A stretch of DNA of 63,531 nucleotides from an uncultured Bacilli bacterium (GCA_947581835.1 CANPVV010000004.1:1-63531), one strand, 5' to 3'. Numbered from the stretch's first letter, positions 1,961-61,647 are shown. The notes: a model not told the origin generated them from the letters alone. A program made the numbers and translations.

Positions 1961-2041
1961 AGGATTATAGCATAAAAATGTAAAAAATAAATATTTTTTT
2001 GTAAATTATTTAAAAAAATGTAAAGATATGATATTATATAG

Positions 2042-3721
2042 ATGGTGGCTAATGTGAAAAAGATTTTAATAAGTATTGATAACAATGAAATAACATTTTC
2101 CTATAAAACTAGTAATAGTACAATTAGTAATGATTTAATTAATACAAATATTATTAGTGATAATGAACTTATTTTTAGTGATATATATATAAAAGAAAAT
2201 ACTAAGATTCTAGCTAGTTTTATTAAAGAATTAGCTATCCAGTATAATGTAAATAAAGTTAATGTTACCAAAATGGATTTAGCTCCTTTGATTCTTAATT
2301 TACTTAGTAAGAGTACTAATATTTTATATTTATATATAAAAGAAGATGAGGCTTTAACTTATACTATTTGTGAAGAATTAATTAAACTTAAGAATATAAA
2401 AACTGTTAATTGTTATACTATTCAACCTTTTATGATTGAATTATTAGATAAAAATCATATCACGTGTGAAACTCGTTCAGAGATACTTTATATGAGTAAT
2501 TTTATGGAAAATAATAATTTAGTTAGATTTTCTAATATATATTATAAGACTAATATTAGAATTACTCTTCCCCTTTCTTTGGAAGATTTTAATGATTTAA
2601 AAGACTTTTGTAAAATAAATAATTATCTTAAAGTAGTTCATATTAATAAACTTATTCCTAATGAACTTGATAATATAGTTAAAGTTTTAACTAGTTTTAA
2701 TAAATATAATTTAAAAGTTATAATACATGAAAATATTAGTGATGAGAAATTAGTTAATCATTTAAAAGAACTTAATAAAAATTATAAGAAGAAATATAAT
2801 ATTGTTTTATCTTTACAATATACTGATGAATATTTAGATAATAATATTTTTAAACAAACTATTATAAATACTCTTAAAGTTTGTGGGTTAATTATTTCAA
2901 GTTTAGTTATTTTGGTAGTTACTTATATTGGGGTTTCTAATTATGTGGCTTTAAAACAAGTAGATGCGATTAAAGATGATTTGGCAAAAGTGGTAGAAGA
3001 TACAGATGTTACAGATATTATTGAAAAAATAAATGAAGAAAATGAGAGAAAAGCACAAGAACAAGAAGTACCGGAGGAAAATCCTAGTGAAGATGAAAAT
3101 AATGAAGAAGGAAATAATCCAGAAGAACCAATTGATGAGGTTAAAAAGGTTACTAATAATGATTTAGCTGCCCTTCTTACAGTTAATAATGACGTTATTG
3201 GTGAACTTAAGGTTAATAATACAAATGTAGATTATCCAGTAGTTCAAGCTGATGATAATGATTATTATTTAGATCATAATATTAATAGACAGAAAAATGC
3301 AAATGGTTGGATATTTATGGATTACCGGAATAATCCAATGAATTTAGATAAAAATAATATTATTTATGGACATAATATGTATTATAGTGGTGTAATGTTT
3401 GGAACACTACATAAAACAGCAAATAAAGGATGGTATACAAATCCAGATAATCAGATTATTACTTATAATACTTTGTATGAAAAAATGAAGTTTCAAATAT
3501 TTTCAATATATAGAGTACCAAAAACAAATGATTATTTAAAAGTTTATTTTAGTGATGATGAAGACTTTATGGCTTTTGTAGAGATGATTACAACAAGAAG
3601 TATATATAATTTTAATGTTCCTTTAAATGCTGATGATACTATACTTACCCTTTCTACTTGTTCTAATAATGGAACTAAAAGATTGGTAATTCATGCAAAA
3701 TTAATAAAAGATGAAGAATAA
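2042..3721 (+). CDS. Class B sortase domain protein with a long N-terminal extension
   Basis: The C-terminal ~200 aa match SrtB hallmarks (NVDYPVVQADDNDYYLDHN, IIYGHNM, catalytic LTLSTCS, RLVIHAKL). They are preceded by a TM helix (LIISSLVILVVTYIGV), an acidic linker and ~280 aa of unknown N-terminal domain. A GTG at 2054 with a GGTGG RBS is an alternative start. Confidence 0.75.
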   Translation: MVANVKKILISIDNNEITFSYKTSNSTISNDLINTNIISDNELIFSDIYIKENTKILASFIKELAIQYNVNKVNVTKMDLAPLILNLLSKSTNILYLYIKEDEALTYTICEELIKLKNIKTVNCYTIQPFMIELLDKNHITCETRSEILYMSNFMENNNLVRFSNIYYKTNIRITLPLSLEDFNDLKDFCKINNYLKVVHINKLIPNELDNIVKVLTSFNKYNLKVIIHENISDEKLVNHLKELNKNYKKKYNIVLSLQYTDEYLDNNIFKQTIINTLKVCGLIISSLVILVVTYIGVSNYVALKQVDAIKDDLAKVVEDTDVTDIIEKINEENERKAQEQEVPEENPSEDENNEEGNNPEEPIDEVKKVTNNDLAALLTVNNDVIGELKVNNTNVDYPVVQADDNDYYLDHNINRQKNANGWIFMDYRNNPMNLDKNNIIYGHNMYYSGVMFGTLHKTANKGWYTNPDNQIITYNTLYEKMKFQIFSIYRVPKTNDYLKVYFSDDEDFMAFVEMITTRSIYNFNVPLNADDTILTLSTCSNNGTKRLVIHAKLIKDEE

Positions 3722-12995: not shown

Positions 12996-15776
12996 TTATT
13001 TATAAAATGATTCAACAATTTCATAGTTGGAGTATTTATAACTATTAGAAGCTAAATCGGTAATACAATTATTTAAATCAGTATAAGATATATCAAAGTA
13101 GAATGGAACAAAGTTAATATTGGCTTTGATATTTGAAGCATAATATGGAGTTACTCCATTAGTATTATACTTATAGTATGCTCTAAGATACCAGGTACTT
13201 CCAGTTTTATAAGGAGTATATACAACTGGGGTGAAATTACTTGATTTTAAAGAATAATTTTTTAGAGTAGCACCATTTACAAAATCAACATAATAACCAT
13301 TATTGCTTCCAGCTTTAGCTATTTCTTTGTTGCGATAATAAGTGGCAGCTAATTCATAATCATTACTACTTGATAAATATCCATAATTAGTTACTTTAAG
13401 ATTATTGGTATTGTAATTTTTAGTAAATTGAATGGTCCAGTCTACACTTGAATTAGTGTTTGCTTGTACCCAAGAAATAGAATAATGTCTTTCTTGTTCT
13501 TTTTTACAATATTTAGAATATAAAACTTGTTCTTTTTCCCATTTAGCAACTAAAGTATAGTCTTGGTAAATACGAGTATTAAAGTTAAATTCACTATTAT
13601 TATAATACCAGCCTAAGAAACGGTAACCACTACGGGTTGGATTAGATGGCCTTGAAACATAATTTCCTTCATCAACAGTTTGTGAGGCTACATAAGAACC
13701 ACCATTACTGTTAAAGGTTACTTTATAGGTCTTATGGCAGCTGCCATCATCGGTCCATTCAGCAACTAAGTGTTTATCACTGTAGACTTTGGTATTGAAG
13801 TTGTAGACTGCACCACTTAAAGAGTTAAGATGCCATGCGACAAATTTATAACAAGCTCGGGTTGGGGTACTTGGTTTTGAGACATAACCGCCTTCATTGA
13901 TGGTTTGTGGTGAGATATAGCTACCACCATTACTATCAAAGGTTGCTTGATAGGTTTTATGACAGCTACCATCGTCAGCCCACTCAGCAACTAAATGTTT
14001 ATCACTGTAAACTTTGGTATTAAAGTTGTAGACTGCTCCACTTAAAGAGTTGAGATGCCATGCGACAAATTTATAACAAGCTCTAGTTGGTGTACTTGGT
14101 TTTGAGACATAACCACCTTCATTGATGGTTTGTGGTGAAACATAGCTACCACCATTACTATCGAAGGTTGCTTGATAGCTCTTATGGCAACTGCCATCAT
14201 CTACCCATTCGGCAACTAAGTGTTTATCGCCATATACTGGAGTATTGAAGTTGTAAACTGCACCACTTAAGGAATTGAGGTGCCATGCAACAAATTGATA
14301 GCAAGATTTGGTTGGGTTACTTGGTCTTGAGACATAGCCACCTTCATTGATTGTTTGTGGTGAAATATAGTTTCCACCATTACTATCAAAGGTTGCTTGA
14401 TAGGTTTTATGACAGCTGCCATCGTCAGCCCACTCAGCAACTAAATGAATATCACCATAAACTGGAGTATTAAAGTTATAGATACTGCCACTTAAAGAAT
14501 TTAGATGCCATGCGACAAATTGATAACATGGACGAGTTGGATTAGCAGGTCTTTTAGCCCAATTTCCTTCTTCAACCGTATCTGGGGCAACTGAAGAGCC
14601 ACCATTTGAATCATAAGTTATATTATAATTAGTTTTAGTATGACAACTACCGTCATCTTCCCATTTAGCAACAAGGGTAATATTTCCTTTTACAGGGTTA
14701 CTAAAATCATATTTGATACCATTTAAATACCAGCCTAAAAAGCGATAACATTTACGAGTTGGGTCACTTGGCCTTGTAACTTCATTTCCATCTAAAACTT
14801 CTTGAGAATCAACTGAGGAACCACCATTACTATCAAAGTCAACAACATATTCTAAGCGAGTATTTATTTTACGCCATTTAGCATAAAGAGTTGTTGGAGC
14901 AGTAATTGGAGTATTAAAATCAAATTTAGTGGTTAGACTGCTATCCTTATACCAACCTAAAAATTCATAACCATCTTTATAAGTTGTAGCATATAAAGCA
15001 ACGTCACCTTGTCTTACTACTTGACGAGGAACATAGCTACCACCATTGGTTTCAAAATATACAGAATATAAGACATTACTTGTACAAGAATTACAGTTTG
15101 GGGTATTGTTAGGGCAACCACAATTGTTTACATAGTTGATATTGTAGTTGGTTATATAGGTGCCTCCCCTATTATTGTTTGATGGATAGGTTTCAGTAGT
15201 GGATGGACTAGTATAATTGTTAGTGGTATTGTTATAACTGTTATTGATACTGTTATCATTAGTTGAAGGTGTGATATAATCACCAGAATAGGTTCCATCT
15301 TTAGTATTGTTGGAATTATCTGTTTGATTAGTGGTATTAGTTGTTGTTCCACAATCAAGACAAGCGATTAAATCATTGCTAATAGTAGTTACAATGTAGT
15401 CTTCTTTATCATCACAGCTTAAATAAACTTTCATAGCATATTCATTATCTAATTGTTTAGTTGTTTTAATATAACTGTTTTTAGTATCACAAACTTTATT
15501 GTTTTCATCATAAAATTCAACTAAAAGTTTGGAATCAATCATTTCTTGTAAAGTTATTTCTTTAGATGTCCCTATTTTTTCAGGAAGATTGGTTCCTTGA
15601 AAATACTCAAAACCCGCTTCTTTCATAAGATTGATATTATTTATATAATTTGATAAATAACCATTACTAGTGTTAGATTTTTTAGGGATTAATACCCATA
15701 TGATACTTACAATAACAAAAACTATTACGATAAATAACATTACTTTAATAAAACTTATTTTATATTCTTTTTCCAT
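12996..15776 (-). CDS. Large surface protein with seven Listeria-Bacteroides (InlB B-repeat-like) repeats
   Basis: It has an N-terminal TM helix and an N/T-rich, Cys-containing linker. Seven repeats follow the pattern Y-x-[VA]-x-F-[DN]-SNGGS...P-T-[RK]-x-[CG]-Y-x-F-[LV]-[GA]-W. A distinct ~177-aa C-terminal domain follows. Confidence 0.85.
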   Translation of the reverse strand: MEKEYKISFIKVMLFIVIVFVIVSIIWVLIPKKSNTSNGYLSNYINNINLMKEAGFEYFQGTNLPEKIGTSKEITLQEMIDSKLLVEFYDENNKVCDTKNSYIKTTKQLDNEYAMKVYLSCDDKEDYIVTTISNDLIACLDCGTTTNTTNQTDNSNNTKDGTYSGDYITPSTNDNSINNSYNNTTNNYTSPSTTETYPSNNNRGGTYITNYNINYVNNCGCPNNTPNCNSCTSNVLYSVYFETNGGSYVPRQVVRQGDVALYATTYKDGYEFLGWYKDSSLTTKFDFNTPITAPTTLYAKWRKINTRLEYVVDFDSNGGSSVDSQEVLDGNEVTRPSDPTRKCYRFLGWYLNGIKYDFSNPVKGNITLVAKWEDDGSCHTKTNYNITYDSNGGSSVAPDTVEEGNWAKRPANPTRPCYQFVAWHLNSLSGSIYNFNTPVYGDIHLVAEWADDGSCHKTYQATFDSNGGNYISPQTINEGGYVSRPSNPTKSCYQFVAWHLNSLSGAVYNFNTPVYGDKHLVAEWVDDGSCHKSYQATFDSNGGSYVSPQTINEGGYVSKPSTPTRACYKFVAWHLNSLSGAVYNFNTKVYSDKHLVAEWADDGSCHKTYQATFDSNGGSYISPQTINEGGYVSKPSTPTRACYKFVAWHLNSLSGAVYNFNTKVYSDKHLVAEWTDDGSCHKTYKVTFNSNGGSYVASQTVDEGNYVSRPSNPTRSGYRFLGWYYNNSEFNFNTRIYQDYTLVAKWEKEQVLYSKYCKKEQERHYSISWVQANTNSSVDWTIQFTKNYNTNNLKVTNYGYLSSSNDYELAATYYRNKEIAKAGSNNGYYVDFVNGATLKNYSLKSSNFTPVVYTPYKTGSTWYLRAYYKYNTNGVTPYYASNIKANINFVPFYFDISYTDLNNCITDLASNSYKYSNYEIVESFYK
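13530..15071. repeat. Coding tandem repeat region (7 domain repeats; four nearly identical 225-bp units at about 13728-14627)
   Basis: Repeats 5 and 6 differ at only 3 of 75 aa. The 225-bp periodicity is visible in the nucleotide sequence. Confidence 0.8.
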
Positions 15777-18845: not shown

Positions 18846-20480
18846 TTAAACTTCTTGAACAACAGCAATAATCATTGGTTTACATTCAGTTTCGCCATAT
18901 AGATAGTTACTTAATTCGTCTCTTATTTCAGTTTTTATTTTATTATAATCAACATAATTTGGAGTTATATTTCTTTCAATAATAGTAGTACTTATCTTTT
19001 TTATTTCACTAATCATGTCTAAGCTATCTTTAATATAGATAAAGCCACGAGTAGTTACTTCGGGTCCTACTAATAAAATTTTATCTTGTTTGGAGATAGT
19101 AGCACTAATTAAGACTATACCATTTTCGCTTAACATTTCACGGTCTTTGATAACTAATTCACCAACGTCATCTGAGGAATTTCCATCAATTAGGCAATCA
19201 TTTACTTTTATTTTATTGGTAGTATTTTGAAGTTCTCCATTTAGGAATTCGACTACTTCACCATTTTGTTTTAAAATAATATTTTCACTAGGCATACCAA
19301 GAGAACTAGCTAAATCAGCATTACCAACCATGTAACGATACTCACCTTTTACTGGCATATAATATTTAGGACGCATAAGTTTAATCATTTGCATTAAATC
19401 TTCACTTGAGGCATGGTGAAGTATCATTTTATCATTAGGAATATTAACTATTTCACAACCAAATTCGGCTAAATCATTTTCGAGTTTAACTAAAACTTTT
19501 TCATTGCTGTCATAACGTGGTTCAGAGAATACTATAGTATCATTGTTTTTAAGTTTGATAAATTTGTCATAACCATTGTAGATTTTAGATAAAGAAGAAT
19601 AAGGACTGGCTTTATCATCACAGATTAGCAAAATAGCATTGTTATCGTTGATATTAGTTAAATCGCCTAGCATATCATCATTGATATGAAGGTATCCATT
19701 GTTTAGACCAAAATTAATCATATTTTGAAGTCTTTTTCCCATAATAATAATTTTACGATGAGAGTTAGTGGCTGCTTCAAATATTTCTTCGATAGTATAA
19801 AGGTGAGTTGGTAAAACCATAAACATGATTCGACCTTCAGCTTTTTTGATAGCTTTTTTAAATACTTCAATTAATTTATGATTAGGAGAAGTGTGTCCAA
19901 TATTTTCACTGTAAACTGATTCAGATAATAAACATAAAACTCCTAATTTACCAATATAGGCAATTTTACCTAAATCCATATCATAAGCACCCATCATAGA
20001 AGGATCAAAAATAAAATCTCCAGTATAACAGATGGCTCCATCTTTAGTGTTTATAACATACATGACGGCATCAGGAGCACTATGGGATACGGATATTGGG
20101 AAAATACTTACATGGCCAAAATTTAATTTTTTATGAGCTTGGATTTCAATAATATTATCAGCACTTACACCCATTTCCATTAAAACGTATTTAGTAAATT
20201 TGGTCGCGTATACTTTTAAATTAGGGATTACGGATAATAAATCAGCAGTTGCTCCCATATTTTCATAGTGGCCATGAGTTATAAATAAGCCTTTTATTCT
20301 TTTTCGATTTTTAACTAAATAAGAAAAATCGGGAATAATATAGTCTATACCTAACATATTACCACTGGCGTATTTTAATCCACAGTCAAAGATAAATAAA
20401 TCTTTATCAATTTCAATTATATACATATTTTTGCCATTTTCGTCTAGTCCACCCAAACTAAAAATCTTTATTTTACTCAT
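18846..20480 (-). CDS. rnjB: RNase J paralogue with degenerate metal-binding motifs (RNase J2-like)
   Basis: The protein is collinear with the canonical copy at 44268. However, HGHEDH is replaced by HGHYEN, HTSGH by HHASS and MHGEY by VKGEY. The start at 20480 follows GGAGTGA. Confidence 0.8.
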   Translation of the reverse strand: MSKIKIFSLGGLDENGKNMYIIEIDKDLFIFDCGLKYASGNMLGIDYIIPDFSYLVKNRKRIKGLFITHGHYENMGATADLLSVIPNLKVYATKFTKYVLMEMGVSADNIIEIQAHKKLNFGHVSIFPISVSHSAPDAVMYVINTKDGAICYTGDFIFDPSMMGAYDMDLGKIAYIGKLGVLCLLSESVYSENIGHTSPNHKLIEVFKKAIKKAEGRIMFMVLPTHLYTIEEIFEAATNSHRKIIIMGKRLQNMINFGLNNGYLHINDDMLGDLTNINDNNAILLICDDKASPYSSLSKIYNGYDKFIKLKNNDTIVFSEPRYDSNEKVLVKLENDLAEFGCEIVNIPNDKMILHHASSEDLMQMIKLMRPKYYMPVKGEYRYMVGNADLASSLGMPSENIILKQNGEVVEFLNGELQNTTNKIKVNDCLIDGNSSDDVGELVIKDREMLSENGIVLISATISKQDKILLVGPEVTTRGFIYIKDSLDMISEIKKISTTIIERNITPNYVDYNKIKTEIRDELSNYLYGETECKPMIIAVVQEV

Positions 20481-20610
20481 ACTAATCACTCCATTTCAAA
20501 ATATAGATAAATAAAAAAAGTTCTAAGGCTTTTTTAATTATATCAAAAAACGGGAATAGTTGCAAGTACTCTAAAAAAGTATAATAAAAAGAAAATGAGA
20601 AAGGAGTTTT

Positions 20611-20856
20611 TTAATCATATAATCCTCCATATTTTGCTAATAATTTTTTATATAAAGATTCAGACATAGTACCATTTATAACATATTTTTTAGCATTCAT
20701 TTCAAGCTCATCAAATTTTAAATCATAAAAGAACCAGTCTCTTGCAGCATGAAATTTTTCTAATTCTTCAATTTCTTCTAAAACACTTTTGGGAAGTTTA
20801 GATAAATCTATCTCTATACTTCTGTCTATCATTTCATGAAATAAGTCTTTGTCCAT
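20611..20856 (-). CDS. Small acidic protein, function unknown
   Basis: 81-aa ORF with a GGAGGTGA RBS, directly upstream of the RNase J2-like gene. Confidence 0.5.
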   Translation of the reverse strand: MDKDLFHEMIDRSIEIDLSKLPKSVLEEIEELEKFHAARDWFFYDLKFDELEMNAKKYVINGTMSESLYKKLLAKYGGLYD

Positions 20857-20939
20857 AATGTCACCTCCTTAATAGTTATTTTTATATTATCAAAAATGAG
20901 CAAAGATTTATTTAATCTTTACTCACGTAATATATTAAA

Positions 20940-20992
20940 AGGCCGTAAAGGGTTGGCCTCTTGCCCATATATGATATAGCAATATGGGCAAG
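20940..20992 (-). terminator. Tandem hairpins terminating the 653-aa secreted-protein gene
   Basis: An 11-bp perfect stem CTTGCCCATAT/ATATGGGCAAG (20960-70 with 20982-92) is followed on the minus strand by GGCC-loop-GGCC plus TTTT (20940-59). Confidence 0.55.
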
Positions 20993-21020
20993 AATTACTA
21001 AAAAGCAAATAATAATTCTA

Positions 21021-22982
21021 TTAAGTTTTTATCATATAAGGATTTTCTATTGTACCATCTCCAGTAAATCTAGTATTAGATTTTAAATTAATTACCGGTC
21101 TAACACCATCACCTCTCCCTCGTATACTTGAACTATAATCTAAATATCCAGCATTTATAATGTAAAAAATATGGCATTCTGAAACTTTACCTCCTAAAAC
21201 TGGTGTCATAGTCCAAAAGCCAGAATTAGTCCAAAGCCAATAACTATAATTAGTTCCATAATTAGCACCTCCAGCAAATACTACTTCATCGGCTGTAATT
21301 AAGCCCACTGGTAAAGACAAGCTTTCATTACCATTTCCTTGATCATTGCTCATAGTAAATAAATCATTTTCTTTCAACTCACACCTAAACGTTGGCTGTT
21401 TCATCAAAGTTATTCTTTTATAAGCACCATAATATGTATTAACTGTACCAAATCCGTATTTTGACTTATCCATCAATGAACTATTTGAAATATTATCATA
21501 TTGATAAGGGGTTCTATCATTACAAAAGCCTGTCGCTCCATCAATATATTTTCTATATTCCTCTTTTATTCCATTATTTCCATTATACCAAGTCTCTAGC
21601 ATTGTTTTTATCTTACTATTATTTTTATTTTTATGAGTTTCATTATAAGGAATATCATTACCAGTAAAAGTTTCACCTTTTGCTCCATACATAAATCCTA
21701 CATTAGCATTATCTTCGCCGGATTCACCGTAGTTACTTTTTTCTGATAATTGTCCAACTGTTGAATTTTTTGTCCAATAGCCATACCCACTTAAGCCTTC
21801 AGAAGTAGTATTTATTATTGAAGCGTTAGCTACCGATATTGGTTCCCCTTCACCAGCATAAATTAAACGTATAGTTCCATTTCCATTTATTCGAATTATC
21901 CGCCATGTTTTTCCAGCAAAGCTTACCCAATTGTTATTAACTGTCCCTCGATAATAATAAGTAGTACCGTAATCATCTTCTCCTTTAAATACTCCATTTT
22001 CGTCAAATGTACAATCTCCAGTACTATGAGCTTCATTTCCACCAGTTCCTTTAGCGCAAGCTGTCCCGGCAAAAGAAGCAGGAGCATTTTTAACGTCAGT
22101 TATTCCTAAATCAGCCAATACTTCTTCTGGTGTTTGAACTTCTAATTTATCAAAATATAAATAGCAACTTGTACCACTTTTTGTTAAATTAGTTACTCTT
22201 AACTCTCCATTTGCCCACTTTAGACTTGCTCCACTACTACAACTACTTTGTTCGTTCAAATAATATCCAGCTTGAGGTATTTCACTTACCTCTTTATAAT
22301 CGTCATCGTCTCTCACATATACTGCCATTACATTTATATCAGGTGTCTTATTTGCTTCCTCTACTGTAACTTCTCCTTCAAATCCTTTGCCAATATCTTC
22401 ATTTTGTATTTCATTTAAATTTGGATATTCTAATACTACATAATAATATACTATTTCTCCTGGCTTAGCCTTTGATTGTATTCGCTCATCATTAACAAGC
22501 ACAACAGTTTGTTCTAAACTATTTGCCTCTATTTCACCACTTCCAATAACTTCACCTAATTTACTTTCATTATTTATAGTACACTTTTCACTTAATGCTT
22601 TCCCTCCGGCTACTGTTTCCCAAACTTTATTACAACTTATACTTACACCTTCTTGCATTTCTTTTACTTTATATACTGTATAATTTATTTTTGTATTTAA
22701 TGTGTTATCACCTTTCCAAACTAAATTATAATATATTAATTCATTACCTACAGCACTCACTTTCAAAGCACTTATATCTTTATGTCCTGGAAGCATATTA
22801 TTATAATTAAATTCTAATGTTCCTTCTATCGTTAACTCAGTATTTTTTATACTCGCCGTTACAACCGTTGTAAATGCACCTTCACCACTACCTATTATTT
22901 TACCTGTAAAATAAGCAAATGTAATTCCAATTACTGGCATTAATATTCCCATTAATACCATTAGTCTTTTATTCTTTTTCAT
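21021..22982 (-). CDS. Secreted protein with TasA/SipW-type signal peptide and a conserved C-terminal domain shared with 60138-61448
   Basis: The N-terminus MKKNKRLMVLMGILMPVIGITFAYFTG carries the (T)FAYF(T/S) motif of SipW-dependent TasA/camelysin-like proteins, followed by LPGH(D)-type beta-rich sequence. The C-terminal blocks WRIIRINGNGTIRLIY, GFCNDRTPY, GLITADEV and VRPVINLK recur in the paralogue. Confidence 0.75.
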   Translation of the reverse strand: MKKNKRLMVLMGILMPVIGITFAYFTGKIIGSGEGAFTTVVTASIKNTELTIEGTLEFNYNNMLPGHKDISALKVSAVGNELIYYNLVWKGDNTLNTKINYTVYKVKEMQEGVSISCNKVWETVAGGKALSEKCTINNESKLGEVIGSGEIEANSLEQTVVLVNDERIQSKAKPGEIVYYYVVLEYPNLNEIQNEDIGKGFEGEVTVEEANKTPDINVMAVYVRDDDDYKEVSEIPQAGYYLNEQSSCSSGASLKWANGELRVTNLTKSGTSCYLYFDKLEVQTPEEVLADLGITDVKNAPASFAGTACAKGTGGNEAHSTGDCTFDENGVFKGEDDYGTTYYYRGTVNNNWVSFAGKTWRIIRINGNGTIRLIYAGEGEPISVANASIINTTSEGLSGYGYWTKNSTVGQLSEKSNYGESGEDNANVGFMYGAKGETFTGNDIPYNETHKNKNNSKIKTMLETWYNGNNGIKEEYRKYIDGATGFCNDRTPYQYDNISNSSLMDKSKYGFGTVNTYYGAYKRITLMKQPTFRCELKENDLFTMSNDQGNGNESLSLPVGLITADEVVFAGGANYGTNYSYWLWTNSGFWTMTPVLGGKVSECHIFYIINAGYLDYSSSIRGRGDGVRPVINLKSNTRFTGDGTIENPYMIKT

Positions 22983-23046
22983 CTAACTTTCTTACCCTTC
23001 TATCATAGAAATTTCTAGTTTATAAATAAATTATAGTACATGATAT

Positions 23047-23072
23047 GTCAAAAGTCAATAAAAAAGTCAATA
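23047..23072. promoter_or_regulatory. GTCAA direct repeats in the divergent promoter region
   Basis: GTCAA occurs at 23047, 23054 and 23066. The 10-mer AAAGTCAATA is repeated at 23051-60 and 23063-72. These resemble the GTCGAA repeats downstream of both regulator genes. Confidence 0.3.
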
Positions 23073-23132
23073 TTTCGGCAATATTATTTTTAAAAATAAA
23101 AATCATGAGAAAATGAATTTTAGGTGATTACT

Positions 23133-23588
23133 ATGTATTATAAGAAAAGACTAAATGAAATAAGAACTTTAAATGATATAAGTCAAAAAAAACTAGCTCA
23201 AATGTTAAATATTTCACCTTACACTTATAGTCATTATGAAACTGAAGATACCATTATACCTTTAAAACATTTAGTTACTCTTTGCAATTACTTTAATGTA
23301 TCTTTAGATTACATTTTTAATTTTAATAATATTGAAAATTACCCTAATTCTAAAAAAGAATTGGACTTAAATCTTGCAAGTACAAGATTAAAAGAATTTA
23401 GAAAAGAAAATAATTTAACTCAAAAAGAACTCGCTAACAAATTAAATGTTGCAAGAACTATTATAACTGAATATGAAAAAGCTCATTATTTAATTTCACT
23501 TCATGCTTTATATACTATTTGTAAAACTTATAAAATATCAGCTGATTATTTATTAGGAAGAATTGATAAACCTAAGTATTTAGAGTAA
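23133..23588 (+). CDS. XRE-family regulator with two tandem HTH domains (module 1)
   Basis: Two HTH_3-like units (ISQKKLAQMLNISPYTYSHYE... and LTQKELANKLNVARTIITEYE...). The start follows AGGTGA. Confidence 0.85.
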   Translation: MYYKKRLNEIRTLNDISQKKLAQMLNISPYTYSHYETEDTIIPLKHLVTLCNYFNVSLDYIFNFNNIENYPNSKKELDLNLASTRLKEFRKENNLTQKELANKLNVARTIITEYEKAHYLISLHALYTICKTYKISADYLLGRIDKPKYLE

Positions 23589-23605
23589 TGTCGAATTTTG
23601 TCGAA
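23589..23605 (+). promoter_or_regulatory. Candidate operator: TGTCGAA-N3-TGTCGAA direct repeat (module 1)
   Basis: Two heptamers lie in 10-bp register, 16 nt upstream of the -35 box. An identical element sits at 24443-24459. Confidence 0.4.
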
Positions 23606-23614
23606 CGATTTTTC

Positions 23615-23642
23615 TTGATTATTTTTATTTATTATTTATAAT
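23615..23642 (+). promoter_or_regulatory. Sigma-A-like promoter TTGATT-N16-TATAAT (module 1 small-ORF RNA)
   Basis: The hexamers were read directly. The predicted start (~23649-23651) coincides with the 5' arm of the closing helix. Confidence 0.5.
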
Positions 23643-23650
23643 AGTTTTTC

Positions 23651-23901
23651 GAGCGTTAGGACTTGCGTCTACTAATTCTGACATATTTATTGCCTCCCTT
23701 ACAAAACTTCTTAGGGGGTTTTGGAGAAAGGAATGATATGAATTTATTAGTCTTTTTAAAAGCAATTTTATTTAAGATAATTGGTTTATTTTCGGATAAA
23801 CCAAAAAAGGCGCAAACACCAATCATTATTATTGTGAGTAACAGTAATAATGTTAGTGTAAGCGTTTCTCCAAAAGAGTAGACGTTTTGCTCCTAACGCT
23901 C
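23651..23901 (+). other. Structured ~251-nt RNA domain closed by 5'-3' pairing, containing a small ORF (module 1)
   Basis: GAGCGTTAGGA (23651-61) pairs with TCCTAACGCTC (23891-901). CGTCTAC (23666-72) pairs with GTAGACG (23878-84). Confidence 0.5.
23738..23881 (+). CDS. Small hydrophobic peptide, 47 aa (module 1)
   Basis: The SD GGAGAAAGG lies 6 nt upstream of the ATG. The peptide is MNLLVFLKAILFKIIGLFSDKPKKAQTPIIIIVSNSNNVSVSVSPKE. The 72-aa track ORF is an in-frame extension lacking an RBS. Confidence 0.4.
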   Translation: MNLLVFLKAILFKIIGLFSDKPKKAQTPIIIIVSNSNNVSVSVSPKE

Positions 23902-23989
23902 TACTAATTTGATTTTAACATAATATTTTTAAATATACAATTATTTTTTATTAATTTAAAAATATAACTTGCTTTTTGTGGTGATATAA

Positions 23990-24442
23990 ATGATTTATAA
24001 TAATTTAAGGAAAATTAGGGAAAGAATTGGTATTTTGCAACAAGAAATTGCGAATAATTTAGGAGTTACAAAATCGGCTTATTGTAGATATGAAAACGAG
24101 ATGGATATTATACCTCTTAAGCATTTAATTAAAGTTACTAAAATTTTAAATGTTTCAATTGATTATGTATTTGATTTTACAAACAATTTGCAATATAAAA
24201 ATATATCTTCAGAAGTAGATTTAGTTAATAGTGGAAAAAGGCTTAAAGATTTTAGAAAAGAAATGGGATTAACGCAAAAACAATTATCTGAAGAATTAAA
24301 TGTAGCTCGCTCTATATTTTATTTATATGAAAGTGGTAAATATTTAATATCTACACATTTATTATATGATATATGTAAAAGATACAAAATATCAGCTGAT
24401 TATTTATTAGGAAGAATCGATAAACCTAAGTATTTAGAGTAG
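23990..24442 (+). CDS. XRE-family regulator with two tandem HTH domains (module 2)
   Basis: Paralogue of 23133-23588. The last ~19 codons are nearly identical at the nucleotide level, while the rest has diverged. Confidence 0.85.
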   Translation: MIYNNLRKIRERIGILQQEIANNLGVTKSAYCRYENEMDIIPLKHLIKVTKILNVSIDYVFDFTNNLQYKNISSEVDLVNSGKRLKDFRKEMGLTQKQLSEELNVARSIFYLYESGKYLISTHLLYDICKRYKISADYLLGRIDKPKYLE

Positions 24443-24459
24443 TGTCGAATTTTGTCGAA
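24443..24459 (+). promoter_or_regulatory. Candidate operator: TGTCGAA-N3-TGTCGAA direct repeat (module 2)
   Basis: Same sequence and same 16-nt distance to the -35 box as in module 1. Confidence 0.4.
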
Positions 24460-24468
24460 CGAAATTTC

Positions 24469-24497
24469 TTGATTAAAGGTTTTTTTAATTTTAGAAT
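24469..24497 (+). promoter_or_regulatory. Sigma-A-like promoter TTGATT-N17-TAGAAT (module 2 small-ORF RNA)
   Basis: The hexamers were read directly. The predicted start lies next to the 5' arm at 24506. Confidence 0.45.
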
Positions 24498-24505
24498 AAA
24501 TACTT

Positions 24506-24759
24506 GAACATTTAAGGCGAAGTGCCTACTTTAGTGTTTTCCTTTCCAAACTATCCTTTACTGAGATTTCAGGGGGTTAGATTTTGTAAAGGAGGTACTT
24601 AAAGTTATGTTAAAAGTAATTTTAACATTATATGTTGTTACAACAAGTGTTGTAACAATAGAAAAGACACTTTTCTTTATCAACATGAATATACACATTG
24701 ACATTAAGATAAGTGTCAACAAAAAGTAATTTTTGTAGGCATTTAGTCCTTAAATGTTC
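24506..24759 (+). other. Structured ~254-nt RNA domain closed by 5'-3' pairing, containing a small ORF (module 2)
   Basis: GAACATTTAAGG (24506-17) pairs with CCTTAAATGTTC (24748-59). TGCCTAC (24523-29) pairs with GTAGGCA (24735-41). There is also an internal perfect 10-bp hairpin at 24635-44 with 24649-58. Confidence 0.5.
24607..24729 (+). CDS. Small hydrophobic peptide, 40 aa (module 2)
   Basis: The SD AAAGGAGG lies 9 nt upstream of the ATG. The peptide is MLKVILTLYVVTTSVVTIEKTLFFINMNIHIDIKISVNKK. It falls below the ORF-track size cut-off. Confidence 0.4.
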   Translation: MLKVILTLYVVTTSVVTIEKTLFFINMNIHIDIKISVNKK

Positions 24760-24809
24760 TACAATTTAAGTTTAACATAATATTTTTAAATATACAATTA
24801 TTTTTTTAG

Positions 24810-25610
24810 TTAATTTAGTTTGATATTGTTATTTTCTTCTTTAATTATTTCACTTAAATAAGATAGTTCTAAACCTTTATAATTTATTTCTTTGATTAAC
24901 ATTTTGACATCTATTAAATTAGCATTTTTAGATATTAAAATAATACTACCGCTGTTTAATTCTTTTTTGATATCAATATAGTTAGTGCTAGTTAATATAA
25001 GAGGTTCTACTAAGTAATTATGATATTTTTGACATATATTAAATAAAGAAGGATTTAAAACACAGATATTTTTATTTTCTTTATTTATATTTAGATCATT
25101 TTCTAATTCTTTAAAGTTTTTTAAATCATTGTTTAAGGGTTCAAAATAGTTATTTTTGTGATATGTATTTTTGGTTACTAATAAAGAGGATTTTAGATTG
25201 TTATCTTTTAAATAGGTACTTATTGTATTTTCTTCTTCTAATATAAGACTTACTTTATTTAGTTTGGGATTACCTTTTATGATTATTTTATCTTTATTAT
25301 TTTCTAAAGAAATATCGGGTTTTACTTGATTAAAGATAAGAAAATATTTATTAAAAACGTCTAATTCATGCATTTTATAGAATGAATCTTTAAGATTTAC
25401 TTCAAGACCATTTAATCCTGGTATGATATATTCACCTTCAATTATAGCATTAACACTTTTTAATTCATATTCATCCTTCTTTTCTTTTATTTCTTGCATT
25501 AAAGGATTTTTATTTAAAACAATACTTGCGATTTGTTCAGTGTAATAAAAACTAAAAACCATAATTAAAGAGAGACCTAAATATTTATAAAACTTTTTCA
25601 AATTAGTCAC
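24810..25610 (-). CDS. Membrane-anchored protein, function unknown
   Basis: 266 aa with an N-terminal TM helix. No catalytic motif recognised. Confidence 0.55.
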   Translation of the reverse strand: MTNLKKFYKYLGLSLIMVFSFYYTEQIASIVLNKNPLMQEIKEKKDEYELKSVNAIIEGEYIIPGLNGLEVNLKDSFYKMHELDVFNKYFLIFNQVKPDISLENNKDKIIIKGNPKLNKVSLILEEENTISTYLKDNNLKSSLLVTKNTYHKNNYFEPLNNDLKNFKELENDLNINKENKNICVLNPSLFNICQKYHNYLVEPLILTSTNYIDIKKELNSGSIILISKNANLIDVKMLIKEINYKGLELSYLSEIIKEENNNIKLN

Positions 25611-25650
25611 CTAAAAAATTATATGCAAAAAAAATTAGCTAAAAACTAGT

Positions 25651-26010
25651 TTAGCCAATTTCTTTTTTAATTAGATCAGCTCCTCTTTTAGGATCTTGCA
25701 AAAGTATTTCATATACCATTCTATTTTTCTTAAGTTCATCAATAAAGATTATTTCTTCGCGAGTCATTTGAACATATTGCTCTTCTTTTTTATTATCGCT
25801 TATCTTAATCAAATAGTCGGCTCCTAAAAGATAATCCGCACTTACACCAAAGACGTGTATCATCTCGATAACTGCTTCTAAAGTTGGATTTCGTGTCTCT
25901 TTTTCATAACAGCATATAGCTGATTTACCGACACCGATTAACTCTCCTAATTCTGTCTGTGTTAAACCTTTTTGTTTCCTGACCTCTCTTAGTCTTGCAC
26001 CGTTTAACAT
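25651..26010 (-). CDS. XRE-family HTH transcriptional regulator
   Basis: LREVRKQKGLTQTELGELIGVGKSAICCYEKE is a classic HTH_3 sequence. Confidence 0.85.
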   Translation of the reverse strand: MLNGARLREVRKQKGLTQTELGELIGVGKSAICCYEKETRNPTLEAVIEMIHVFGVSADYLLGADYLIKISDNKKEEQYVQMTREEIIFIDELKKNRMVYEILLQDPKRGADLIKKEIG

Positions 26011-26135
26011 CTTCCCATCACCCTCGTTTTCATAAACAGATTATAACTTTAGTTAGCAATTATTTGTAAATTTTCCACCTATGGTAAAAAATACATAGTA
26101 TTTTTGACAAAATATCAATATTATTGAGTATTTTA

Positions 26136-26462
26136 TTAAGACTTAGGGGTTGATGATATAAATGATACTTTATCTGCGATTACTTCAATTACTTGCTTTT
26201 TTTGGTTATCTTCTGTTTCGTATGTTCTTGATTGGAGCTTGCCTTTTACACCAAGGACATCGCCTTTATGACAATAATCTTTGGTAGCACTGGCTATGCC
26301 ATTCCATAAAACACATTTGATAAAATCAGCATCATAAATACCATCAGCATTTCGGTAATCTCTTGAGACGGCAATAGTAATAATTGTTCTTTTAGTTCCA
26401 TCAGTGTTTTCTTTTACTTCCGGATCTTTAGTTAATCTACCGACTAAGGTTACATTATTCAT
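26136..26462 (-). CDS. ssb: Single-stranded DNA-binding protein, short form lacking the acidic C-terminal tail (SsbB-like)
   Basis: OB-fold signature MNNVTLVGRLTKDPEV...FIKCVLWN...VKGKLQSRTYE. At 108 aa it has no DDxPF tail. Confidence 0.8.
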   Translation of the reverse strand: MNNVTLVGRLTKDPEVKENTDGTKRTIITIAVSRDYRNADGIYDADFIKCVLWNGIASATKDYCHKGDVLGVKGKLQSRTYETEDNQKKQVIEVIADKVSFISSTPKS

Positions 26463-26652
26463 GAATATTCCTCCTTCCTTACGAAGAATATAACATGAAT
26501 ATTTTGATGGAACAAAAACAGATTTTTAGGTTTCTTTATAGCAGAAATTTATAAATCTGCTAGCAAATTTTAATAAATCTGCTAAGCTAATTTTATCATT
26601 TTGGAAAATTTTATATTTATGTGTAAACTTTACATTTCTTAACATTCCTTTT

Positions 26653-27948
26653 TTAACATTCTTTTAAAAGACGATTTAATTCTACAGCATATTCTAAAGG
26701 TAGTTCATGTTTGAAATCTTTAATAAAACCCATCACTAATAATTCTTTAGCAAGAGATTCACTTAAACCTTTACTCATTAAATAAAATAATTGTTCTGCG
26801 TTTACTTTAGAGATAGTGGCCTCATGTTCTATGGTTGATGAGCTATTACTTAGAATATTGTTGGGAATAGTATCGCTTTTACTTTTATTGTCTAAAATTA
26901 TGGTGTCACATTTAATGGTGGCTTTAGAATTAGTGGCATTTTTAGTAATTTTAGTGGTACCACGATAAGTACTTAGGCCCCCATTTACCGAAATAGATTT
27001 ACTTACAATATTACTTTTAGTATTTTTGCCTAAATGAATCATTTTTGCTCCAGCATCTAAGATTTGGTTTTCATTAGCATAAGCAATACTAATCGAATTA
27101 CCCCGTGAATTATCTCCTTTTAAGATACAGCTTGGATATTTCATAGTTATTTTAGAGCCAATATTACCATCAATCCATTCCATTAGACCGGATTCTTCAA
27201 CTATGGCTCGTTTAGTTACTAAATTATATACATCTTTGCTCCAATTTTGGATAGTGGAATATTTACATTTAGCGTGTTTTCCCACATAGATTTCAACTAC
27301 TCCGGCATGTAAGCTTGTAGAAGAATAACTTTTAGCAGTACAGCCTTCGATATATTCTAGTTCAGCATAATCATCAACAATAATTATAGTATGTTCAAAT
27401 TGACCAAGAGATGCACTTTCAATACGAAAATAACTTTGCAAAGGTCTATCTAATTTAGTATGTTTAGGTATATAGATAAAAGAACCCCCACTCCAGAAAG
27501 CACAGTTTAGGGCAGTATATTTATTTTCTGAATATTTAACTAGATTATTAAAATACTTTTTAAATAGATCAGGATATTTTTTTAAAGCTTCATCAGTACT
27601 GGTAAAAATTACTTTACTTTCTTTATCCTTAATATTATGGTAGACTACTTCACTTTCATATTGGTTGGTAACTCCATATAAATATTCTTGTTCTGCTTTT
27701 ACAACACCAAGATCACAAAAGGTATTGCGAATATTGTTATCAACTTTGTTCCAATCATCGGTTAATTTATTTTCATTGTCTTTATAGTAGGTTATAGCTT
27801 TAAAATCAATGTCTAATTTAGGACCAAAAGTAGGATTATTAAAAGTATTGAAGGTTTCTAAAGACTTTAGTCTAAAGTCTAATACCCATTTTGGTTCATT
27901 TTTTTTCTTGCTTAAATCTATAACATATTTTTTGTCTATTTCTTGCAT
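26653..27948 (-). CDS. sufB: Fe-S cluster assembly protein SufB
   Basis: SufB-type blocks include FWSGGSFIYIPK, YIEGCTA, HLGKNTKSNI, IEHEATISKV and LPLEYAVELNRLL. No sufC/D/S/U lies adjacent. Confidence 0.85.
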   Translation of the reverse strand: MQEIDKKYVIDLSKKKNEPKWVLDFRLKSLETFNTFNNPTFGPKLDIDFKAITYYKDNENKLTDDWNKVDNNIRNTFCDLGVVKAEQEYLYGVTNQYESEVVYHNIKDKESKVIFTSTDEALKKYPDLFKKYFNNLVKYSENKYTALNCAFWSGGSFIYIPKHTKLDRPLQSYFRIESASLGQFEHTIIIVDDYAELEYIEGCTAKSYSSTSLHAGVVEIYVGKHAKCKYSTIQNWSKDVYNLVTKRAIVEESGLMEWIDGNIGSKITMKYPSCILKGDNSRGNSISIAYANENQILDAGAKMIHLGKNTKSNIVSKSISVNGGLSTYRGTTKITKNATNSKATIKCDTIILDNKSKSDTIPNNILSNSSSTIEHEATISKVNAEQLFYLMSKGLSESLAKELLVMGFIKDFKHELPLEYAVELNRLLKEC

Positions 27949-28075
27949 ATTTATCCCCAAAGAGTATTATACTACATTATTTTTTATTTGTTTAGTATAT
28001 TTTTTAAATGTTTAGAGTTGTTTTTTAGATATTTTTTTGATAAAATTATAGATAGTAAATAATTGGAGGGATATT

Positions 28076-28935: not shown

Positions 28936-29304
28936 GGGGTAGCCTATTGGTTTCGACATATATTACTAAATATGACGGCAAGTGGGAGTGACACCTTAAG
29001 TCTAAATTTAAAATTAAATGACAAGAATGAAAGTTCTTTTGCTTCAAATGCTTTTGCATTTGCCTAGTTTAATAAGGATATAGCAAGCTTCTATTTAATT
29101 TGCTTATAGGTTATTTAGGGGTTCATAGATATAAGATATATTATTTTATTTGATTAGGATAAAGTAATGAATTTTTACTAATCTAGTTATTTTATAGGTT
29201 GGTCCTTGAGCCAGTAGAATAATGAATTTTAAATCAGGCTAAACTTGTAGATGTTGTATTATAGGATATATTGGACAGGAGTTCGATTCTCCTCTACTCC
29301 ACCA
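28936..29304 (+). ncRNA. ssrA: Transfer-messenger RNA
   Basis: The 5' GGGGTAGC... pairs with the 3' ...CTACTCCACCA acceptor. A T-arm GGAGTTCGATTCTCC is present. The tag reading frame at 29020-29067 encodes DKNESSFASNAFAFA*. The minus-strand ORF 28841-29059 is spurious. Confidence 0.93.
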
Positions 29305-30110: not shown

Positions 30111-30202
30111 GTGCCTAGGAAACTTTTGAAGCCCTAGGTCTTTTTCATTTTATAGGAGGTAAAATGGCTAAAGAATTTAAATCAACTAATGAATTAATAG
30201 AA
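30111..30202 (+). repeat. Leader plus first 13 codons of the Abi gene (copy 1 of a direct repeat)
   Basis: GTGCCTAGGAAACTTTTGAAGCCCTAGGTCTTTTTCATTTTATAG...ATGGCTAAAGAATTTAAATCAAC...TTAATAGAA recurs at 31085-31174. Confidence 0.8.
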
Positions 30203-31051
30203 ATATTAAACTCAAAAGGTTTATTAATAAAAGATGAAAAGAATGTTAGATATTTAATTGAAAAATATTCTTATTATTCAATTATAAACTCTTATAAATG
30301 GATATTTAAAATAGGAGAAAATTATAAAGATAATGCTTCATTTGAAGAAATATTTGCAATGTATAAATTTGACAAGAATTTAAAAATAATAATGCTTAAA
30401 TATATTCTTGAGATAGAAGCAGTAATAAAAACTAAAATCGCTAATATATTTGCTCAAAAATATGGGTTAGAAGTCTATTTAAGTACTAATAACTTTGATT
30501 TAAAGGATGATGATTCTAACTTAGAGCACATAGAAAAACTAATAGAAGAGATTAAAAATGAAATTGATAAAGGAAATGGTAACCATGATGCAATAACTCA
30601 TTATATGAATAAATATGGATTTGTTCCACCTTGGGTTGTTACTAAAATATTATCTCTTGGGACTATTAGTAAGCTTTATGGTTTGATGAAGCAACAAGAT
30701 AGACAAGAAATTAGTAAGCAATTTCATATAAATGATAGAATATTAAAAAATATACTTGGTAATTTAACATCAGTTCGTAATATAGCAGCTCATGATGATA
30801 GATTATATACTTATAGAAGTACTTTCTATATCAGATTAGATAAAACAAAAAAATCTCCTGATAAAGCATTGCACACAAATATGTATATTATAATTAAATC
30901 TTTAGAATTATTATTAGAAAGTGGTCAAGCAATTGAAATGAAGAATTTAATTATAAATGAATTAGATATGTTAAAAGATAGTTTGACATCAATTACTATT
31001 GAAGAAGTATTAAAAGTAATGGGTTTTGATAAGGATTATTATATTGTATAA
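30164..31051 (+). CDS. Abi_2 (AbiD/AbiF-like) abortive-infection family protein
   Basis: The family pattern as I remember it: STNELIEILNSKGL, FDKNLKIIMLKYILEIE, PPWVVTKILSLGTISKLY, LTSVRNIAAHDDRLY. Confidence 0.8.
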   Translation: MAKEFKSTNELIEILNSKGLLIKDEKNVRYLIEKYSYYSIINSYKWIFKIGENYKDNASFEEIFAMYKFDKNLKIIMLKYILEIEAVIKTKIANIFAQKYGLEVYLSTNNFDLKDDDSNLEHIEKLIEEIKNEIDKGNGNHDAITHYMNKYGFVPPWVVTKILSLGTISKLYGLMKQQDRQEISKQFHINDRILKNILGNLTSVRNIAAHDDRLYTYRSTFYIRLDKTKKSPDKALHTNMYIIIKSLELLLESGQAIEMKNLIINELDMLKDSLTSITIEEVLKVMGFDKDYYIV

Positions 31052-61448: not shown

Positions 61449-61647
61449 ATACTATCCCTTACTTTTTTAATATATTACAACATTTTAGTAAATTTTTCAT
61501 TATATTCGACAAAACAAGTCAAAATGTTATATATTTTGTTATATATTTATATTACAATAATTATTAAAAAAATTCAATATCTTTATAGTTATATTTTTAT
61601 AGAAATAAACATATTGTTAAGTAGAAAGTTTGAAAGATGGTGAATTT

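Follow-up and report, generated by a model that had tools for sequence, protein, structure and literature searches.

A 63,531-nt stretch of DNA from an uncultured Bacilli bacterium (GCA_947581835.1, CANPVV010000004.1:1-63531; here called the window) carries, from position 23133 onward, two consecutive units with a period of ~855 bp, and the question raised by this locus is what such a unit produces and how its product is kept in check. Comparative sequence analysis and structure prediction suggest that each unit is probably a convergent type I toxin-antitoxin-like module with a fold-back mRNA, located at the 3' end of a gene for a regulator with two helix-turn-helix (HTH) domains. The layout is common to both units: a regulator gene of the XRE type, the tandem repeat TGTCGAATTTTGTCGAA directly after its stop codon, a sigma-A-type promoter, a segment of ~250 nt whose ends pair, and within it a small open reading frame (ORF) preceded by a Shine-Dalgarno (SD) sequence (Table 1). 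These parts had been described in a first-pass annotation made from the sequence alone, which gave the regulators as ~150-aa proteins with two HTH domains, the promoters as TTGATT-N16-TATAAT and TTGATT-N17-TAGAAT, and the ORFs as 47 and 40 aa; all were found again at the same places. The two regulators are 55% identical to each other. The units form a mosaic in which near-identical flanks surround cores that are only ~50% alike: positions 23533-23622 and 24387-24476, which span the last ~55 nt of the regulator gene, the boxes and the -35 element, are 86/90 identical, and a 36-nt block (23914-23949 and 24771-24806) is identical at 36/36 positions. Near-identical flanks around divergent cores suggest gene conversion or cassette exchange between conserved flanks.

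The ends of the segments carry the argument. In the first segment (S1), GAGCGTTAGGA pairs with TCCTAACGCTC and CGTCTAC with GTAGACG; in the second (S2), GAACATTTAAGG pairs with CCTTAAATGTTC and TGCCTAC with GTAGGCA. Both predicted folds are far more stable than those of shuffled sequences, with 0/200 shuffles as stable as either native segment. About 28 modules like the two in the window occur among 80 genomic regulator loci and at least 120 metagenome loci (cited by L numbers where single loci must be told apart). Their shared parts are the promoter, a two-part closing helix (three-part in one group), a C/U-rich anti-SD element, a GGGGGTT element, the SD, the small ORF and a conserved 3' flank. 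They are multi-copy and patchy in distribution, and come from metagenome-assembled genomes (MAGs) and gut metagenomes. Arm sequences belong to at least five unrelated types (GAGCRTTAGGA, GAACATTTAAGG, TGTTATCCAG...GGCGCCTGC, AGATACATTTGATAG and GATATACCTAAT), and in every box-type module the helix starts 7-8 nt after the -10 box. Compensatory change between the arms, first proposed from the two units, extends to this family: closure is kept in the ~28 modules.

Covariation was scored for 19 pairs in a gap-free, arm-only alignment of 15 modules (those of peptide groups F1 and F2, below), registered by hand. Standard pairs form in 96.1% of cells, a value favoured by dropping L073 and by removing one A-T pair from four longer arms, and 7/19 pairs have changed on both sides (13 cells). 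Sliding the register by 1-3 columns lowers pairing to only 26-44%. The observed pairing and covariation values are reached by 0/500 shuffles, a statistic whose significance is overstated, since the helix itself guided the register and the modules are related to one another. On the opposite strand the same columns pair at 87.4%, with ~27 G·U or U·G pairs becoming A·C. In 22/24 modules the full-length segment folds more stably as sense than as antisense RNA (mean -72.8 vs -61.0 kcal/mol). Because only the sense strand tolerates G·U pairs and the sense fold is the more stable, these data argue for a selected RNA structure in the ORF-sense transcript, not a DNA-level inverted repeat. Hand-built arm pseudo-sequences were used instead of a MAFFT alignment, which misplaced 1-nt indels; for a covariance model the ~250-nt length lies above the calibration limit and the arms differ too much between subfamilies. 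A generic inverted-repeat finder was also tried and was swamped by chance 10-mers in the AT-rich DNA.

Within the closed segment, translation initiation appears to be hidden. Both the minimum-free-energy and the centroid fold place SD and start codon in paired regions, the SD (and AUG) opposite upstream C/U-rich anti-SD elements, and analogous elements occur in relatives. For unit 2 the first-pass annotation had proposed CCTTTAC as a partner of the SD; the minimum-free-energy fold instead pairs it with UUUUCCUUU (24537-24545). The conserved element said to precede the SD is present in both units as AGGGGGTT, and the hairpin reported inside ORF2 is perfect and at least 10 bp long. The start codon of ORF2 is predicted to lie in a 9-bp hairpin, and the stop codon of ORF1 lies inside the inner closing helix.

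Both ORFs encode peptides of <60 aa with a hydrophobic N-terminus and Lys-rich parts. Peptide 1 belongs to group F1 (..KKTSTTIIIxxNxIxVNV..), shared with at least 10 other loci, and peptide 2 to group F2 (MLKVIL...FINIxIDIxISV), shared with L046, which also carries the closest relative of the S2 segment. A third group, F3 (MNEEIKYLFIIIIMLISIIRDDHKKKR), occurs at several metagenome and MAG loci and consists of classic transmembrane (TM)-plus-KKKR peptides; L008 and L265 encode two short TM peptides as singletons. When the 356 ORFs of the window were searched with a hidden Markov model (HMM) of 10 foreign F1 peptides, peptide 1 was recovered at E 9e-9 and peptide 2 was not, in line with the original description of the two peptides as unrelated; a common pattern in the alignment might speak for their homology, which was nonetheless rejected on the HMM result. 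Among 5.8 billion proteins searched with a profile, 7 matched, all unnamed.

Three copies of the module are decayed. In L034 (3051-3264) the ORF is frameshifted, with a TGA at a Trp codon and an 8-nt deletion; L004 (3044-3117) has an internal deletion and keeps its arms around 50 nt; in L256 (13519-13753) an F3 ORF is frameshifted. The closing helix is still present in all three.

The missing half of a type I system was the antisense RNA, for which no convincing promoter had been seen. The 36-nt block identical between the units reads, on the minus strand, as an extended -10 promoter, and equivalent antisense promoters are predicted at the same place in nearly all modules; in the F3 group the sequence differs (TTGTTA-N17-TGaTATATT). 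Transcription from it is predicted to start 2-4 nt outside the 3' arm. A minus-strand hairpin followed by a T-run, a predicted intrinsic terminator, lies ~50-100 nt into the segment. For most F1-type modules, and for 14/24 modules in all, the minus-strand form of this hairpin is more stable than the plus-strand form. The resulting antisense RNAs could base-pair with the 3' arms and with the final ~26 codons of the ORF, not with the SD. An overlapping antisense RNA gene is thus a predicted part of the modules.

The antisense terminator also touches the peptide. Its T-run is the complement of Lys codons (AAAAAA/AAAAAG) at 23803-23808 and 24662-24665, as in F1 and F3 modules generally, and the arms of the terminator hairpin encode KTST/VNV, so peptide and opposite-strand terminator constrain each other.

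Table 1. Features of the two units, of their flanks and of the rest of the window (positions counted from the first base of the window)
Feature	Position	Strand	Remarks
Double-HTH (XRE) regulator 1	23133-23588	+	151 aa; two HTH_3 domains, E 9.5e-27
Tandem boxes, unit 1	23589-23605	+	TGTCGAA-TTT-TGTCGAA; ~-61 to -45 of the putative toxin promoter
Sigma-A-type promoter of putative toxin mRNA 1 (predicted)	23615-23642	+	TTGATT-N16-TATAAT; -10 box ends 8 nt before closing helix
Structured segment S1 (putative toxin mRNA)	23651-23901	+	fold -85.1 kcal/mol, z -8.55
S1 closing helix	5' arms 23651-23661, 23666-23672; 3' arms 23878-23884, 23891-23901	+	
S1 anti-SD element	23692-23700	+	GCCTCCCTT
S1 conserved element	23713-23720	+	AGGGGGTT
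S1 SD	23723-23732	+	
Small ORF 1	23738-23881	+	47 aa (MNLLVFLKAILFKIIGLFSDKPKKAQTPIIIIVSNSNNVSVSVSPKE); SD-preceded; family F1, HMM E 9e-9
Cis-antisense RNA 1 (predicted)	23803-23905	-	~100 nt; hairpin dG -21 kcal/mol then TTTTTT; U-run 23808-23803
Antisense promoter 1 (predicted)	23912-23940	-	-35 TTGTAT (23940-23935), 17-nt spacer, extended -10 TGtTAAAAT (23920-23912)
Double-HTH (XRE) regulator 2	23990-24442	+	150 aa; two HTH_3 domains, E 1.7e-22
Tandem boxes, unit 2	24443-24459	+	TGTCGAA-TTT-TGTCGAA
Sigma-A-type promoter of putative toxin mRNA 2 (predicted)	24469-24497	+	TTGATT-N17-TAGAAT; helix begins 8 nt past -10 box
Structured segment S2 (putative toxin mRNA)	24506-24759	+	fold -87.0 kcal/mol, z -9.86
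S2 closing helix	5' arms 24506-24517, 24522-24529; 3' arms 24735-24742, 24748-24759	+	
S2 anti-SD element	24537-24545	+	
S2 conserved element	24571-24578	+	AGGGGGTT
S2 SD	24588-24595	+	
Small ORF 2	24607-24729	+	40 aa (MLKVILTLYVVTTSVVTIEKTLFFINMNIHIDIKISVNKK); SD-preceded; family F2, homologue in L046; pN/pS 0.54
Cis-antisense RNA 2 (predicted)	24662-24763	-	~100 nt; hairpin dG -20.2 kcal/mol then TTTTCT; U-run 24665-24662
Antisense promoter 2 (predicted)	24769-24797	-	TTGTAT-N17-TGtTAAACT
Divergent promoter	23030-23058	-	TTGACT-N17-TATAAT, 11/12 consensus; upstream of regulator 1; serves secreted-protein gene
Secreted-protein gene	21021-22982		
SpoIVA gene	61630-63126	+	all three Pfam domains, E 2.6e-104
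RNase J paralogue	18846-20489	-	
RNase J paralogue	44268-45944	+	
RNase Y	48315-49868	-	
Transfer-messenger RNA gene	28936-29304	+	tag peptide DKNESSFASNAFAFA
Abi_2 (abortive-infection-like) protein	30164-31051	+	
DDE transposase	139-1866	+	

Since an antisense gene is predicted in nearly all modules, the locus conforms to the usual layout of convergent type I systems in Firmicutes (PMC6563280, PMC6562991). The first-pass annotation had likened the mRNA to those of type I toxins while missing the antisense RNA and assuming a private operator; its closing helix, sequestered SD and hydrophobic ORF stand, and the other two points are revised. Like txpA/RatA and bsrG/SR4 of Bacillus subtilis and CD2517.1-RCd8 and CD0956.2-RCd10 of Clostridioides difficile, the modules encode a small hydrophobic Lys-rich peptide, combine a convergent toxin mRNA with a ~100-nt antisense RNA (here predicted) that overlaps at the 3' end and leaves the SD uncovered, and are chromosomal, multi-copy and housed with RNase J and RNase Y. 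They differ in the 5'-3' helix, the tandem boxes and the site at the 3' end of a regulator gene, and share no sequence or model similarity with these pairs.

The predicted SD sequestration and the covarying long-range pairing of mRNA ends recall hok/Sok of E. coli and aapA1/IsoA1 of Helicobacter pylori, whose primary transcripts are inert through 5'-3' pairing plus SD sequestration (PMC5416894, PMC6733600). Those belong to Proteobacterial and Campylobacterota systems, and in them the antisense RNA binds close to the 5' or the translation-initiation region and takes effect once the 3' end has been processed, whereas the antisense RNA predicted here covers the 3' arm, for which the 5' end of the mRNA would be its competitor. 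By sequence and model the modules appear unlike any known type I family (Fst, TxpA, BsrG, Hok, Ldr and others, and the antitoxin RNAs of Rfam), with kinship in architecture.

A mechanism can be proposed on this basis. The sigma-A promoter with its two boxes, which match the binding site of Spo0A (below), would start an mRNA of ~250 nt whose first bases pair with its last, in which local helices hide both SD and start codon, and which would be translationally inert while encoding a 40-47-aa hydrophobic Lys-rich peptide. The inward minus-strand promoter, with a terminator ~100 nt on, would yield a cis-antisense RNA that overlaps the 3' arms together with the 3' part of the ORF. The paired 5' end may guard the mRNA from 5'-dependent decay by RNase J. 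Sharing sequence with the 5' arms of the mRNA, the antisense RNA could pair with the 3' region, displace the 5' end and trigger decay of the duplex. Peptide would then be made only when antisense RNA falls or when Spo0A~P, as a possible activator, boosts the promoter on entry into stationary phase or sporulation. The module may stabilise the variable, multi-copy locus of regulator and secreted protein.

Several points weigh against this account. The sense and antisense promoters, the antisense RNA and its terminator are all predictions, and for the sense mRNA no intrinsic terminator was found in the window, only a U-rich stretch 3' of the 3' arm (L008 and L265 have a T-run after their closing helix). 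The ratio of nonsynonymous to synonymous polymorphism (pN/pS) lies only moderately below 1 (0.38-0.95, below 1 in 12/12 pairs), and the F1 and F2 peptides are amphipathic, with no long uninterrupted TM stretch. The peptides have no match in Pfam, NCBIfam or PADLOC, and an Rfam scan of positions 20000-28000 at E<=1 gave two chance-level matches and no type I RNA family. The covariation statistics are inflated by the hand-set register and the relatedness of the arms. A Spo0A orthologue was not found by tblastn in the window or the related-MAG loci, which cover a small part of each genome. Finally, this account does not explain the strong linkage between regulator and module.

That linkage bears on who reads the tandem boxes. 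The core of the 0A box is TGTCGAA (PMC3485338), and Spo0A~P binds as a dimer to boxes 3 bp apart (PMC2731898); the window repeats are two consensus 0A boxes in direct orientation with 3-bp spacing near a promoter, with centres near -58 and -48. With up to two mismatches, the tandem box has 3 matches in the window vs 0.21 expected. A 21-nt motif joining a 0A box to the -35, TTTGTCGAACGNTTTTTCTTG, occurs at 120 or more loci in gut metagenomes (L201-L320), against ~2 chance matches expected for 20 specified bases in a collection that we estimate at ~1e12 bases. A second box, degenerate in sequence, lies 3 bp upstream at many of them; because of this degeneracy an exact operator search in the 80 regulator loci found none, and a fuzzy search for the proximal box succeeded. 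Genes downstream of such promoters are heterogeneous (HicB-like antitoxin, sortase, CdiA_C toxin domain), the promoters also occur in high-GC Clostridia and on phage contigs, and a double-HTH gene stands upstream in only ~10/122 box sites among the matches listed. Spo0A rather likely binds the tandem boxes, and it is ranked above the adjacent double-HTH regulator, an unlikely binder, because the boxes equal the 0A consensus, recur at >100 unrelated promoters lacking the regulator, and share the window with a SpoIVA gene. Readings of the box as a cre/CcpA, CodY or alternative-sigma site were rejected on inspection of the consensus.

Around the boxes, some further observations can be recorded. 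In one phage group an inverted box (TTTTCGACA) follows the -35. A single consensus 0A box lies at 61505-61511, between the SpoIVA gene and a divergent gene for a 436-aa protein, and the 5' end of the transfer-messenger RNA gene accounts for one of the window's TTCGACA matches. In IMG/VR viral contigs, a search with a 15-base box pattern gave mostly unrelated matches (L081-L200) and no structured module, so the module appears not to be phage-borne in that collection, though the box promoter occurs there. A second type of toxin-mRNA promoter, TTGACA after repeated palindromes (GCAGATTTTAATAAATCTGC, GCAGATTTTGG...), is found at L047 (3240-3345) and also at L039, L073 and L032; these palindromes look like the operator of another regulator, and at these loci the double-HTH gene lies next to the antisense promoter.

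Control by a protein factor would not be new for a type I toxin, by analogy with LexA. The type I toxins of tisB/istR-1, symE/SymR and dinQ/agrB are under LexA, the SOS-responsive repressor. They resemble the modules in having the operator of a global regulator at a type I toxin promoter plus an antisense RNA; the modules differ in that their motif is a Spo0A box, placed upstream of the -35 as for an activator. Among promoters under Spo0A, abrB and A2c of phages phi29/Nf have the identical core TGTCGAA, the direct-repeat orientation and the 3-bp spacing (PMC3485338, PMC2731898), and the modules, at which Spo0A binding is predicted, differ from these in carrying a toxin-like small ORF as cargo.

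The foremost alternative, a minor possibility, is that the adjacent double-HTH protein is a dedicated repressor of the toxin promoter, binding the repeats with one HTH per repeat and replacing or adding to RNA control. Two tandem HTH domains would suit a direct repeat spaced at 10 bp, the boxes begin at the base after the regulator stop codon in the window and within ~50 nt of it in other loci, and the regulator lies directly upstream of ~8-9/13 box-pattern modules vs ~1/108 other box promoters (our own tally among the matches listed). The linkage of regulator and module is real, and it holds in either orientation; a regulatory role on the toxin is a possibility. Yet the same boxes at the same -35 spacing stand before more than 100 unrelated promoters that lack the regulator, the proximal box is invariant beside regulators that are only 50-60% identical, and the repeats are identical although the HTH domains within a protein are unlike one another. 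At L039, L047 and L073 the regulator adjoins the antisense side and the toxin promoter has a different palindromic site (GCAGATTT...AAATCTGC), and ~60/80 regulator loci have neither boxes nor module. The proposal in the first-pass annotation that the TGTCGAA repeats are the regulator's own operator gives way before their 0A-box identity, their use mostly at other promoters and their constancy beside diverged regulators.

A more obvious target for the regulator is the divergent secreted-protein gene, because the upstream region is common to all regulator loci, ~60/80 of which lack the module. On this evidence the regulator more likely controls that gene than the toxin. The divergent promoter and 5' leader are conserved upstream of ~20 regulator loci, and the divergent secreted proteins are homologous (653 aa in the window vs 435 aa in L047, E 4e-61), with a FAYFTG-type signal peptide. 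The shared upstream region (22983-23132 in the window; also L020, L026, L034, L047, L061 and others) comprises a divergent promoter ATTTTTCTTGACT-N17-TATAAT, a leader (..TAAGCTAGGAAA..) and ATGAGAAAAT-N-GGTGA just before the regulator ATG. The regulator family itself has >1771 homologues, with many copies per genome and often at contig ends; the scores of both domains must be added up to reach the NCBIfam RstR subfamily model (88 and 80.5 bits, cut-off 80).

It is quite unlikely that the small ORFs encode benign membrane or sporulation-stage proteins, timed by Spo0A and tuned by the antisense RNA. Small sporulation peptides such as SpoVM and CmpA are known, and tandem 0A boxes in a spore-former host, together with F1 and F2 peptides that are amphipathic and not clearly transmembrane, would suit such a role. 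Multilayer silencing by 5'-3' closure, buried SD and AUG and antisense RNA is instead characteristic of genes for toxic products, TM-plus-KKKR peptides are found in sister modules, the same promoter precedes a CdiA_C toxin domain in L023, and the modules are multi-copy, patchy and in three loci decayed. The CdiA_C arrangement occurs at L023 (~3060-3654, minus strand) and L038 (minus strand), where the same boxes and promoter precede a 139-178-aa CdiA_C toxin-domain protein (E 5.8e-13). Its gene is convergent with the 3' end of the regulator gene, a protein toxin standing where other loci have the small-ORF module.

That the segments are non-coding structured RNAs, whether a sense/antisense small RNA pair or a cis-regulatory leader, with incidental ORFs, is very unlikely. 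The structure is very strong on both strands, perfect hairpins lie within the ORFs, and the motifs KKTST and VNV coincide with hairpin arms, so RNA constraint could mimic peptide conservation; nonetheless almost all of the ~28 modules keep a spaced SD, a start codon and an intact frame despite large divergence, pN/pS is below 1 in every pair compared, indels between relatives are in frame, and without a role for translation an anti-SD element would have no point. A DNA-level element, such as a cassette resembling a miniature inverted-repeat transposable element or an invertible one, with terminal inverted repeats whose folds are a by-product, is most improbable: it would account for the inverted repeats that bound each segment, the occurrence of modules in both orientations with respect to the regulator and the near-identical flanks around divergent cores, but not for G·U pairs confined to the sense strand, which in DNA would be A·C mismatches, arms that begin at the predicted +1 and differ between families instead of forming one transposase-specific terminus, or modules beside which no recombinase gene or target-site duplication is seen.

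The window as a whole is chromosomal and low in GC, comes from an uncultured gut bacterium of Bacilli type, and has genes for tyrosyl-tRNA synthetase, DnaB, ribosomal protein L9, phosphoribosyl pyrophosphate synthetase, SufB and single-stranded DNA-binding protein. Its SpoIVA gene marks the host lineage as one that forms, or recently formed, endospores. At 12996-15776 (minus strand) a 926-aa protein has 7 Listeria-Bacteroides repeat domains, and its repeats yield near-identical DNA copies. Elsewhere, L290 encodes a full-length Spo0A (2037-2843, minus strand) that is 54% identical to the B. subtilis sequence, on an AT-rich contig with a box motif 1.7 kb downstream of the Spo0A gene. As a clue to the window lineage it was rejected, the protein being of Clostridia type with closest named relatives labelled 'Clostridia bacterium' in a protein search.

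A bolder and doubtful extension of the toxin-antitoxin reading would make the modules a cassette platform, in which toxin-mRNA cores are exchanged between fixed Spo0A-box and antisense-promoter flanks anchored at regulator genes, and the regulator (or Spo0A with the regulator) and the antisense RNA jointly gate toxin release at the sporulation decision. If so, the modules would constitute a hybrid toxin system of uncultured gut Bacilli, under both protein and RNA control and coupled to development, which might, for example, eliminate cells or stabilise variable surface-protein loci.

If the convergent type I reading itself is right, the two units belong to an unannotated superfamily of type I-like loci in uncultured spore-forming gut Bacilli. 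The 5'-3' locked mRNA in the style of hok and aapA1 would then exist in Firmicutes too, combined with a 3'-overlapping antisense RNA that mimics the 5' end of the mRNA, and type I toxins would be linked to the master regulator of sporulation through perfect tandem 0A boxes. The 0A-box promoter is a widespread and portable one in gut Firmicutes and their phages, and these features are ones that gene callers and RNA-family libraries currently overlook.

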